A stretch of 64,000 nt of DNA from Dictyostelium discoideum (Eukaryota): assembly GCA_000004695.1 (NCBI GenBank), contig CM000154.2, positions 832,001 through 896,000 on the forward strand, read 5' to 3'. Every line of letters starts with the position of its first letter. The stretch's first letter is position 1. Below, piece by piece: positions 17,433 through 19,010 of this stretch. The notes beneath the pieces were generated by a model that ran no database searches, was not told the DNA's origin, and worked only from the letters and a program-made list of their open reading frames with translations. Position numbers and translations under genes: made by a program.

Positions 17433-17835
17433 TAGGTATCAGGCATATGGGGTTGGATGGGTGGGTACGCGTCAAGATGTGGTGGTCTTTGGGTGAAGGT
17501 ATGTATTATAAAATTAAAAATATTGTATAAAATAAAATTATTCGGGGCTGGGGGTGGGAACTTCTTCCGGAAGAGGTTGGGGCTAAAAGATGTTTAGACA
17601 TCTCCTCCTCGGGGCGAGGGTTATACGTGAGTCCGGCTCTGCAAAGAGATCGCCCCGAGGAGGAGATGTCTAAACATCTTTTAGCCCCAACCTCTTCCGG
17701 AAGAAGTTCCCACCCCCAGCCCCGAATAATTTTATTTTATACAATATTTTTAATTTTATAATTCATACCTTCACCCAAAGACCACCACATGTTGACGCGT
17801 ACCCACCCATCCAACCCCATATGCCTGATACCTAA
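17433..17835. repeat. near-perfect ~400-bp palindrome (inverted repeat arms ~185 bp, ~34-bp central loop)
   Basis: The left arm taggtatcaggcatatggggttggatgggtgggtacgcgtcaagatgtggtggtctttgggtgaaggtatg...cggggcg matches the right arm cgccccg...cataccttcacccaaagaccaccacatgttgacgcgtacccacccatccaaccccatatgcctgatacctaa. I see one mismatch in the outer 70 nt. Centre near 17635. A poly-A(30) sits immediately 5' of the left arm. Confidence 0.85.
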
Positions 17836-18277
17836 AAATACTGAATTTAAAACAATTTATTATTATTCTGTTTTTGCTTAACATTATTTTATTTTTTTCT
17901 TTTTATTTATAATTATATATAATTCTTACCCTATAAAACATAAAATATTTATAATTTACCTTAAATAGTTACCACACCTAATAAAAATGATACATTAATT
18001 AATTAATTTTTTTTTTTTTTTTTTTTTTTTCACAACACATACCTTCACCTAAAGACCACCACATGTTGACGCATACCCACCCATCCAACCCCATATAATT
18101 GATACCTAAAAATACTGAATTAAAAATAATTATTATTCTGTTTTTGCTTAATATTATTTTATTTTTTTTCTTTTTATTTATAATTATATATATAATTCTT
18201 ACCCTATAAAATATAAAATATTTATAACTTGAATTAAAGTTCACAAATGGACTACCACACCTAATACAAATGATTCC

Positions 18278-18317
<40 letters not shown>

Positions 18318-18741
18318 CACATACATTCACCTAAAGACCACCACATGTTGACGCATACCCACCCATCCAACCCCATATGCTTGACACCTAAAAATACTGA
18401 ATTTAAAATAATTAATTATTCTGTTTTTGCTTAATATTATTTTTTTTTTTCTTTTTATTTATATTTATATATTATAATTCTTTCCCTATAAAACATAAAA
18501 TATTTATAACTTGAATTAAAGTTCACCAATTGACCACCACACCCAATACAAATGATTCCATTATTTTTTTTTTTTTTTGAACATACATTTATAGACCATA
18601 CTTGATACTAATTGACCCTAATACTAAATTATTTTATTATTATTTTATTTTTTCCTTTTATTTATAATCATATTCATAAAATAGTTCTTACCCTATAACA
18701 TTAAATACGTACCACACCTAACACAGAATGATACATTAATT

Positions 18742-18777
<36 letters not shown>

Positions 18778-19010
18778 TACATACATTAACCTAAAGACCA
18801 CCACATGTTGACGAATACCCACCCATCCAACCCCATATGATTGATTCCCTAAAAATACTGAATTTAAAATAATTCATTATTATTCTGTTTTTGCTTTTTA
18901 TTCATATGATAAAATATATTTAATCTACCTACACATTAAATTAAAAATACCTACCTTGAAAGACCACTCAATGTATGAAGCACACACCTAATAAATATTA
19001 GTATTATTAA
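17760..19010. repeat. tandem array of ~5 copies of a ~265-285-bp unit; the first copy forms the right palindrome arm; possibly transposon- or satellite-derived
   Basis: Each unit is poly-T(20-30) + acaacacatac cttcacctaaagaccaccacatgttgacgcatacccacccatccaaccccatat..gatacctaaaaatactgaatttaaaa..ttattctgtttttgcttaatattatttt..ctataaaa..ataaaatatttataa..accacacctaat... Copy starts fall near 17770, 18035, 18300, 18560 and 18785. Later copies degenerate. Confidence 0.8.

Follow-up and report, generated by a model that had tools for sequence, protein, structure and literature searches.

The closest described counterpart of the repeats reported here is a G4-forming sequence. In the published G4 map of Dictyostelium discoideum, the 19-nt sequence TGGGGTTGGATGGGTGGGT is the oligonucleotide p5, which forms a parallel G4 in vitro with a Tm of 55 C and is described as a G4 oligonucleotide 'interspersed by ~400 bp' (PMC6511855). 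Its copies in AX4 are given as two on chromosome 1 (482 bp apart), three on chromosome 2 and five on chromosome 5, the last at 849448–850835; the sequence is reported solely as clusters of two, three and five copies, and singletons are unmentioned (PMC6511855, Table 2 note g). Further points of comparison are the non-LTR elements TRE5 and TRE3, which target tRNA genes (~50 bp upstream or ~100 bp downstream) and contain ORF1/ORF2 or remnants of them (PMC5633606), and a D. discoideum Skipper fragment capable of folding into a hairpin with a stem of ~320 bp, from which cloned small RNAs have been proposed to derive (PMC2175303).

Here we describe a 1.6-kb non-coding block on D. discoideum chromosome 5, in which units of ~270 bp (four to five copies) are arranged head-to-tail with T-runs between them, and a near-perfect 404-bp palindrome caps one end (Table 1). 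It lies in the 2.55 kb that separate two convergent gene calls. The window, the whole stretch of DNA analyzed, comprises 64,000 nucleotides (positions 832,001 to 896,000 of contig CM000154.2, assembly GCA_000004695.1), and all positions given here are positions in it. Exact p5 is present in five copies, one on the plus strand and four on the minus strand, and sits in the GC-rich heads of the units; U4 lacks it, and the inverted copy U0 has it. The distance from the first to the last copy (17448–18835, 1388 bp) becomes the published chromosome 5 interval when 832,000 is added, and since this offset is exact at both ends, the published p5 locus on chromosome 5 is this block. Because p5 is also listed on chromosomes 1 and 2, the unit is a low-copy family that is clustered at three or more loci and is neither unique to one locus nor dispersed in high copy; the earlier note on this DNA had named confinement to this locus as grounds against a mobile element, and the unit is not so confined. 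Across loci the head motifs are spaced at about 213, 274–282 and 460–482 bp. The family has hitherto been known only through a footnote on its G4 motif; in a k-mer search of the literature p5 alone was matched, and the core, the other head k-mers and the left-flank segment X returned nothing.

Table 1. Features of the palindrome, the tandem array and the left flank, with positions in the 64-kb window. Units are numbered from the palindrome outward; U0 is the inverted partial copy.
Feature	Position	Strand	Description
Left flank (X)	17236–17398		Unique, 163 nt, 28–40% GC; between the TGTTAATG minisatellite and A29
A29 homopolymer	17399–17427	+	Followed by a 4-nt CTCG filler, then the outer end of the left arm; A24 in the second assembly
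Left arm, outer part (U0)	17432–17503	-	Initial 72 nt of the unit head, inverted; p5 at 17448–17466, G-rich on the + strand
Left-arm linker	17504–17542		39 nt, AT-rich
Left-arm core	17543–17617		GC-rich (52–62% GC); G4-prone GGGGCTGGGGGTGGG; small internal palindromes AACTTCTTCCGGAAGAGGTT and AGATGT..ACATCT
Palindrome-center spacer (loop)	17618–17649		Asymmetric, 32 nt; regional GC skew changes sign here
Right arm, inner part	17650–17763		GC-rich core 17650–17724 and AT-rich linker 17725–17763; mirrors the left arm
U1	17764–18030	+	Head 17764–17835 is the outer part of the right arm; p5 complement 17801–17819; AT-rich tail; ends in T24 (18007–18030)
U2	18031–18313	+	p5 complement 18075–18093; ends in T31 (18283–18313)
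U3	18314–18578	+	p5 complement 18357–18375; ends in T15 (18564–18578); nearest to U2 (head 95%, tail 93%)
U4	18579–18772	+	194 bp, diverged; head deletion of ~35 nt removes the G4 motif; tail end U1-like; ends in T29 (18744–18772; T26 in the second assembly)
U5	18773–19024	+	Conserved head; p5 complement 18817–18835; diverged tail; ends in T14 (19011–19024)

There are several features of the array to be considered. First, the unit of ~270–280 bp consists of a GC-rich head of ~85 nt, an AT-rich tail of ~160 nt and a T-run, and the units keep a constant register and share a junction of the form ...ATTAA, T-run, ...CATAC.... Second, the repetition is regular: TRF reports positions 17764–18578 with a period of 282, 2.9 copies and 90% matches; repeat spacings are 274, 282 and 460 bp, of which the first two are the periods of U1–U3; and the 22-mer ACCCACCCATCCAACCCCATAT occurs five times in the window, always inside this locus, with an expectation of 0. 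At least three copies thus lie head-to-tail at a reproducible period, with two diverged units after them. The earlier note had described about five copies of a ~270-bp unit, each opening with 20–30 T residues, and alignment reproduces the periodicity, but only U1–U3 are well conserved (heads 94–95% identical, tails 82–93%), the tails of U4 and U5 being far more diverged (61–67%; that of U5 is ~64% like the others); similarly, T-runs do separate the units, but they vary from 14 to 31 nt, and U1 is preceded by the palindrome linker. Third, the heads are conserved much better than the tails. Fourth, when the array is read on the minus strand, A15–A31 follows four of the six head copies, and U0 and U1 lead into linker and core instead. 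Finally, the U5 tail carries a degenerate second head-like copy (z = 7 vs shuffles) and the U3 tail a weak trace of one (z = 2.7), a nested periodicity which suggests that local duplication occurred in repeated rounds.

The palindrome extends from 17432 to 17835, and no other complex palindrome occurs in the 64 kb. Its arms (17432–17617 and 17650–17835) are 186 nt each and 99% complementary, with two mismatches, and the right arm passes directly into the direct-repeat array. Family sequence accounts for just 72 nt of each arm, the remainder of the stem being mostly the locus-specific GC-rich core, of which a 24-mer and a 30-mer are confined to this locus within the window. It had been proposed in the earlier note that the left arm is an inverted partial unit including its homopolymer; this holds for the first 72 nt of the head, but the homopolymer is not homologous, as the homology stops (at CGAG) and is followed by A29, which is not at the position of the unit's T-run. 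Folded as RNA, the palindrome gives a single hairpin of -365.6 kcal/mol (z = -38.7 vs shuffles). The GC skew is mirror-symmetric around the palindrome center from 17070 to 19010, well past the arms, and the G4-prone sites lie on the plus strand to the left of the center and on the minus strand to its right.

The left flank X is only a possible part of the structure. The segment contains no tRNA and has no similarity to the units, and its minus strand has a lone B-box-like GGTTCGATTCT at about 17316–17326. A hammerhead-like CTGATGAG...CCAAAC within it was rejected, with the conserved GAAA core broken and Rfam silent; a box C/D snoRNA was rejected too, as X gives a 19-bit match to ceN44 only and none of its k-mers occurs in the supplement published with the D. 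discoideum snoRNA study. A further possibility, that X and the TGTTAATG minisatellite are a decayed mirror copy of the array, was set aside, since they are no more similar to it than shuffles are.

A second, independent assembly (GCA_054883475.1) has an identical palindrome and identical units with zero base substitutions, and from 16800 to 19400 its only departures from the window are a single G indel and changed lengths of three homopolymers; since the two assemblies agree, the block structure is not an assembly artefact. Attempts to find orthologous loci with the flanking genes as queries returned one 101-aa fragment at a non-syntenic locus in D. cf. discoideum (Sec16-like gene) and no match (segments of the downstream gene). 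Searches of sequence collections with the repeat itself were as follows: a six-frame composite pseudo-protein has no match among 5.8 billion proteins; a 125-aa ORF across U2 gives only a low-complexity match in a full HMMER scan (E = 4e-4); three repeat-encoded ORFs have no record by exact look-up in assemblies; the 22-mer of the head and the 24-mer of the core have 0 matches in metagenome and prokaryote-genome collections (which hold no Dictyostelium genomes and so carry little weight here); and the palindrome has no blastn match among plasmids and phages.

No finding identifies the block as a transposon or as part of a centromere-like cluster. The 64-kb window is ordinary, gene-dense euchromatin, encoding among others ornithine aminotransferase (Aminotran_3), RPN2, Brix, DENN, ankyrin and WD40 proteins and an actin-fragmin kinase, and no transposon-encoded protein or domain, including reverse transcriptase and endonuclease, is found among its ORFs of at least 250 aa; the DIRS-rich, centromere-like setting envisaged in the earlier note is therefore not that of this locus, a DIRS-1-rich centromeric cluster being dominated by DIRS-1, Skipper or other transposon sequences and poor in genes. 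The same note had offered a transposon end or nested insertions of a mobile element as the source of the array, and this too finds no footing. ARAGORN identifies no tRNA gene in the 64 kb, and in the repeat locus it makes no call until the threshold is relaxed below -ps80, where the calls are implausible. No Rfam family reaches its gathering score at the locus, and the sub-threshold matches are to generic miRNA-hairpin models only (e.g. mir-671, 36 bits, where the gathering score is 65). By both searches neither a tRNA-, 5S- or 7SL-derived head nor an internal Pol III promoter was found. No target-site duplications were found around the block as a whole; the unit junctions are all homopolymers, so that a duplication at these could not be seen. 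The position and coding content expected of TRE5 and TRE3 are not seen, with no tRNA in 64 kb, no reverse transcriptase or endonuclease domain in ORFs of at least 250 aa and only the lone B-box-like motif of X. As judged by eye, the unit ends (CACAAC or ACAAC to ...ATTAA on the plus strand, TTAAT to ...TGTTGTG on the minus strand) do not fit those of a Helitron (5'-TC...CTRR-3', with a 3' subterminal hairpin and insertion at A/T).

We tentatively favor, at somewhat short of even probability, a satellite-like tandem repeat that arose through unequal exchange or slippage and has, at one of its ends, an inverted duplication of recent fold-back origin. The array would have grown in place, in satellite fashion, as its units underwent unequal exchange or replication slippage, with the T-runs and G4 motifs as plausible sources of fork stalling and mis-pairing. 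One end would later have folded back on itself (snap-back), in a recent inverted duplication that took in the neighboring GC-rich core, the linker and 72 nt from the start of the unit head and gave the 404-bp palindrome with its asymmetric 32-nt loop, such a loop being the usual footprint of fold-back priming. The clusters on chromosomes 1 and 2 would be DNA-level copies of pieces of the array and not independent transpositions. We infer this mechanism and order of events from the sequence, and likewise the potential consequences (cruciform, G4 and, if the palindrome is transcribed, hairpin RNA). The neighbors U2 and U3 are the most alike and the outer U4 and U5 are diverged, as expected for duplication in place followed by decay. 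The arms are 99% identical, compared with 94% (head) and 84% (tail) between U1 and U2, which indicates that the inverted duplication is younger than the array, or that the arms have been homogenized. Other observations sit less easily with growth in place. To reach three chromosomes, the family would need some further process, for instance recombination between ectopic sites or the reinsertion of circles derived from the repeat. Pure A-runs of variable length (15–31) on the minus strand, U1 excepted, would also mark copies that were retroposed independently. Simple decay also need not be why the heads are far better preserved than the tails; constraint or a mosaic origin could account for this instead.

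Read on the minus strand, each unit ends in poly(A), and for this reason a retroposon origin is kept as the main rival, albeit one that we consider unlikely: a SINE-like or other non-autonomous, poly(A)-tailed retroposon would have inserted repeatedly into its own tails. Its sense strand would be the G-rich minus strand, with the G4 near the 3' end followed by the poly(A) tail, and new copies made by target-primed reverse transcription would enter the A/T-run of an earlier one, generating a head-to-tail array with target-site duplications hidden in the homopolymers. To our knowledge, no SINE-like element has been described in Dictyostelium. The unequal lengths of the A15–A31 ends on four units fit such an origin, as do the constant 5' boundary (TTAAT...TTAGGTGTGGT), which rules out random truncations, the retention in the left arm of just those 72 nt that are closest to the head end, and the head spacings, which suit copies that keep the 3' head and vary in 5' length; the presence of the family on three chromosomes (PMC6511855) points the same way. 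However, the repeat has neither an internal Pol III promoter nor a tRNA-, 5S- or 7SL-like head, U0 and U1 continue into linker and core and not into poly(A), and the part of the head that would be the 3' end beside the A-run is its least constant (CACAACA, ACAACA, GAA, AACCATA). Long pure homopolymers, moreover, are common elsewhere in the intergenic DNA of the window (A42, A41 and a 58-nt T-rich run that is 91% T). The 64 kb lack a tRNA gene, whereas the non-LTR elements TRE5 and TRE3 of Dictyostelium target them (PMC5633606), and the ~10 head copies reported in AX4 are every one clustered (PMC6511855).

The near-perfect inverted repeat that continues into tandem subrepeats on one side also invites comparison with Foldback- or MITE-like DNA elements, of which the block would be a remnant, with long inverted termini built of tandem subrepeats and one arm largely deleted. 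We regard this as quite improbable despite the mirror symmetry of the GC skew far past the arms and the multi-locus nature of the family: such elements have terminal inverted repeats with target-site duplications, whereas the inverted repeat here is internal and central, neither X nor the minisatellite of the left flank shows any detectable resemblance to the units, no flanking duplications are seen, the window contains no transposase, and the core 24-mer and 30-mer occur nowhere else in it. A functional RNA locus is given an equally small chance. It would act either through a transcribed palindrome, whose 186-bp hairpin would be diced to small RNAs acting on other copies of the family, or through the T-runs as promoter T-tracts driving short ncRNAs from each head. 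The perfect hairpin, the purely miRNA-hairpin nature of the sub-threshold Rfam matches and the better conservation of heads are in keeping with this, and precedents are found in the Skipper hairpin (PMC2175303) and in the T-runs that precede Dictyostelium pri-miRNA transcription start sites (PMC6161686). Single units, though, have no significant fold on either strand (z = -0.8), no Rfam family reaches its gathering score, neither core nor head k-mers occur in the texts and supplements examined for the Dictyostelium miRNA literature, there is no exact match to a DUSE-type promoter motif, and the block is flanked by the 3' ends of convergent genes. Mu killer of maize is a source of small RNA in the form of an inverted repeat. 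It is improbable that the palindrome is transcribed and is likewise a hairpin source of small RNAs against the G4-bearing head of its own family, including the chromosome 1 copies that flank DDB_G0268466, and so a 'killer'-type inverted duplication that polices a SINE-like retroposon family, which would be the first to be described in D. discoideum.

Should satellite-like growth with a fold-back duplication be correct, the block is an ordinary but tidy low-copy tandem repeat and its value lies mainly in annotation. It would account for the clustering of a strong G4 motif, few of which occur in the AT-rich D. discoideum genome; the 'promoter' G4 copies of chromosome 5 would sit in a repeat between convergent genes and not in promoters; and the 404-bp palindrome would be flagged as possibly fragile, cruciform-forming or dsRNA-producing. 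The locus would carry more weight if the units were retroposed as a SINE-like element or if the hairpin yields small RNAs.

Among known systems, Alu-type A-tail insertions and the TRE non-LTR elements of Dictyostelium resemble the array in having a variable A-run at one unit end, a head-to-tail arrangement and multiple loci; the array differs from them in the absence of a Pol III head, of a nearby tRNA gene and of visible target-site duplications, and in its very low copy number. Like the long Skipper hairpin (PMC2175303), the block has part of a repeat family in inverted duplication and could yield perfect dsRNA, although most of the stem here is a GC-rich core specific to this locus. In its constant register, most similar neighbors, decayed edges and nested sub-periodicity it is comparable to satellites and macrosatellites with higher-order structure, but it has only four to five copies per locus, occurs at three small loci, forms an array that is not pericentromeric, and is folded at one end into a palindrome. 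In relation to the p5 copies of AX4, it has the same 19-nt motif at the same chromosome 5 locus, and the ~270-bp unit, the T-runs, the inverted copy, the palindrome and the classification as a repeat family, which are not part of that account (PMC6511855), are all described here.

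The repeat block is the chromosome 5 member of a small G-quadruplex (G4)-bearing repeat family, real and reproducible in two assemblies; until now this family has been noted solely through a 19-nt motif. The block lies within a 2.55-kb interval between genes (gene calls of a second assembly, GCA_054883475.1, in window coordinates). One end of it is a near-perfect 404-bp palindrome, and a direct array of units, U1 to U5, begins within the right palindrome arm. Both the tandem array and the palindrome had been described in an earlier note from the sequence, and both are real, with the period and the arms recovered by TRF, repeat search, and MAFFT.

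Coordinates of the repeat block and its neighbors in the window
Feature	Position	Strand	Remarks
Sec16-like gene	14815-16894	+	upstream neighbor
Minisatellite, eight-base TGTTAATG x17	17080-17215		left of palindrome; TRF
Segment X	17236-17398		unique, 163 nt, GC-richer; then A29
A29 homopolymer	17399-17427		outside left arm
Left palindrome arm	17432-17617		186 nt
Right palindrome arm	17650-17835		186 nt
U1	17764-18030		ends T24
U2	18031-18313		ends T31
U3	18314-18578		ends T15
U4	18579-18772		ends T29
U5	18773-19024		ends T14
Downstream gene remnants	19442-19900	-	split over all three frames, several frameshifts

The palindrome arms are 99% complementary (2 mismatches; inverted-repeat search) and are separated by an asymmetric 32-nt spacer. 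As a single strand the palindrome folds into one uninterrupted hairpin (-365.6 kcal/mol, z = -38.7 versus dinucleotide shuffles), and it is the sole complex palindrome of the 64-kb window, the remaining long inverted pairs all being trinucleotide runs. Each arm starts at its outer edge with 72 nt of unit head, continues through an AT-rich linker of 39 nt, and ends toward the center with a GC-rich core of 75 nt (52–62% GC, compared with 5–25% elsewhere in the region) in which GGGGCTGGGGGTGGG and small internal palindromes are present. At the outer edge of the left arm the 72 nt of head end, and an unrelated CTCG (plus strand) and then the A29 run follow; the arm is thus an inverted partial unit, as the note had it, to the extent of these 72 nt, but its homopolymer is not the mirror of a T-run.

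Unit boundaries in the array were set by homopolymers. TRF calls the array at 17764–18578 (period 282, 2.9 copies, 90% matches), and the start-to-start spacings of the repeats are 274, 282, and 460. The GC-rich heads of U1, U2, U3, and U5 share 89–95% identity (MAFFT alignment and pairwise counts), and the U4 head is missing about 35 nt, precisely the G-rich motif. Among the AT-rich tails, identity is 93% between U2 and U3, 82–84% between U1 and either of these, and 61–67% for all pairs with U4 or U5; a second, degenerate head copy lies inside the U5 tail (z = 7 versus shuffles). All five copies of the 22-mer ACCCACCCATCCAACCCCATAT in the window belong to the repeat block, with none expected by chance. 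Five units can be delimited where about five copies of a ~270-bp unit had been claimed, but just three (U1–U3) are well conserved, and the poly-T(20–30) said to start each unit is found at the junctions with lengths of 14–31 nt and does not precede U1. No significant fold of single units was found on either strand.

The second assembly records an ornithine aminotransferase identical to that of the window on CM142511.1 (exact look-up), and megablast comparison of the window with this assembly reveals zero mismatches, only indels; the 100-N gap at 13392–13491 corresponds to 418 nt (L005:13602–14019, in second-assembly coordinates). Between 16800 and 19400 the differences amount to one G (17283) and the lengths of three homopolymers (window/second assembly: A29/A24 at 17399, T29/T26 at 18744, and A42/A33 at 19245), and these length differences are either true polymorphism between laboratory strains or platform error. 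The palindrome and array recur in this independent long-read assembly and are therefore not an artifact. Over the approximately 20 kb compared between assemblies, indels are almost all in long homopolymers and there are no substitutions; very long intergenic runs are common, including A41 at 20633, a 58-nt T-rich run at 21104, and a 159-nt A-rich run at 21418.

The window is gene-dense and ordinary, with Pfam matches to peptidase M16, aminotransferase, ankyrin, DENN, Brix, RPN2, actin-fragmin kinase, and WD40. There are no transposon domains among the Pfam matches of its proteins, and the block is not part of a DIRS-rich or centromere-like cluster as suggested earlier. The plus-strand gene on the left ends at 16894 and the minus-strand gene on the right has its 3′ end at 19442, and the flanking genes are therefore convergent. 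In the Sec16-like gene the Sec23-binding domain of Sec16 is reduced to its first 43 positions out of 298, and the frame is broken near 16700; since the stretch is identical in both assemblies, the gene is, judging from sequence, probably a truncated pseudogene and not a sequencing error. The second assembly calls just a 105-aa model in the downstream remnants, which have the same sequence in both assemblies and are a probable pseudogene, so that degenerate genes lie on both sides of the repeat block. A non-syntenic stretch of ~300 bp in Dictyostelium cf. discoideum (GCA_054859235.1, L006:9965–10262) is ~93% identical to window positions 15980–16275 in the Sec16-like gene, and abuts a different near-perfect palindrome (L006:10263–10441; 47-nt arms, 98% complementarity, 85-nt spacer) unrelated in sequence to that of the window. 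That a gene fragment adjoins a palindrome at each of two loci could be coincidental, or it could be left over from a rearrangement mediated by fold-back.

The G-rich strand of the unit head, TGGGGTTGGATGGGTGGGT, is oligonucleotide p5 of the AX4 G-quadruplex map (literature k-mer search), which forms a parallel G4 with a Tm of 55°C in 100 mM KCl (PMC6511855). The map places two copies on chromosome 1 flanking DDB_G0268466 (1755955–1755973 and 1756437–1756455; Table 2 note g), three on chromosome 2 (4788017–4788460), and five, intergenic, on chromosome 5 (849448–850835) (PMC6511855). From first to last copy, p5 spans 17448–18835 in the window, the published chromosome 5 coordinates minus exactly 832,000 at both ends, and we therefore infer that the repeat block is the published cluster and that the window is AX4 chromosome 5 832,001–896,000, the offset being 13 x 64,000. 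These copies were classed with promoter or UTR G4s (PMC6511855), whereas the repeat that holds them lies where the 3′ ends of two genes converge. Seven G4-prone sites (G4Hunter-type scoring) are on the plus strand left of the palindrome center and on the minus strand right of it, without exception. The GC skew changes sign at the center, being strongly positive on the left as far as 17070 and strongly negative on the right as far as 19010.

The minisatellite has a 32-nt higher-order period (89% matches) and no detected similarity to the array units; with G present and C nearly absent on its plus strand, it extends the positive skew and mirrors the C-rich array across the palindrome center. Segment X also has no similarity to the units. 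Its fold is mildly non-random (z about -2.3), and it carries a lone B-box-like GGTTCGATTCT on the minus strand (about 17316–17326), a hammerhead-like string with a broken core (CTGATGAG...CCAAAC), and a weak box C/D-like match (ceN44, 19 bits). X, in which neither a tRNA nor an Rfam family was found, could be an old retroposed RNA.

No tRNA genes occur in the 64-kb window, and none was found under relaxed ARAGORN settings either. TRE-type elements lie at tRNA genes, ~50 bp upstream or ~100 bp downstream of them (PMC5633606), and such an element was rejected here. A known RNA family was likewise rejected: no Rfam family reaches gathering score in the 64-kb window, and permissive searching gives only sub-threshold generic miRNA-hairpin matches on the palindrome. 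Protein searches with repeat-encoded translations found no protein-level relatives, and k-mers of the block do not occur in the texts or supplements of those Dictyostelium papers on miRNAs and snoRNAs that were checked.

Two models of origin, amplification in place and retroposition, fit most of this anatomy. To amplification in place we give slightly less than an even chance: the units are in constant register, the neighbors U2 and U3 are most alike and the outer units decayed, and the head-like remnants in tails suggest older duplication rounds. Both the T-runs and the G4 motifs could plausibly favor slippage and stalled forks. The exact p5 motif, moreover, is reported in clusters only, of two, three, and five copies (PMC6511855). 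Retroposition of poly(A)-tailed copies seems unlikely, but it would account for the pure A-run of differing length that ends every unit but U1 on the minus strand, for the constant boundary opposite that run, and for a family on three chromosomes, and insertion into older A-tails would give such arrays with target-site duplications hidden. However, a Pol III-type head and a tRNA target are both missing, copy number is very low with every reported copy of the exact motif clustered, the bases adjoining the A-run vary, and long homopolymers are common in D. discoideum intergenic DNA. The two models can be combined, with a retroposed seed amplified in place afterwards.

The palindrome arms are far closer to each other, at 99% identity, than any pair of units, and the asymmetric 32-nt loop is the expected footprint of a fold-back inverted duplication, which would have copied 72 nt of the head together with the linker and the core. 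A DNA element of the foldback or MITE type is an improbable source of this structure. Nothing shows either mobility or function of the repeat, and it is best filed as an uncharacterized low-copy tandem and inverted repeat. The locus would be of greater importance were it true that the units retroposed or that the hairpin yields small RNAs. We think it improbable that this is a functional hairpin-RNA or ncRNA locus, though such a reading has a precedent in the Skipper fragment, with a stem of ~320 bp, that has been proposed as a small-RNA source (PMC2175303).
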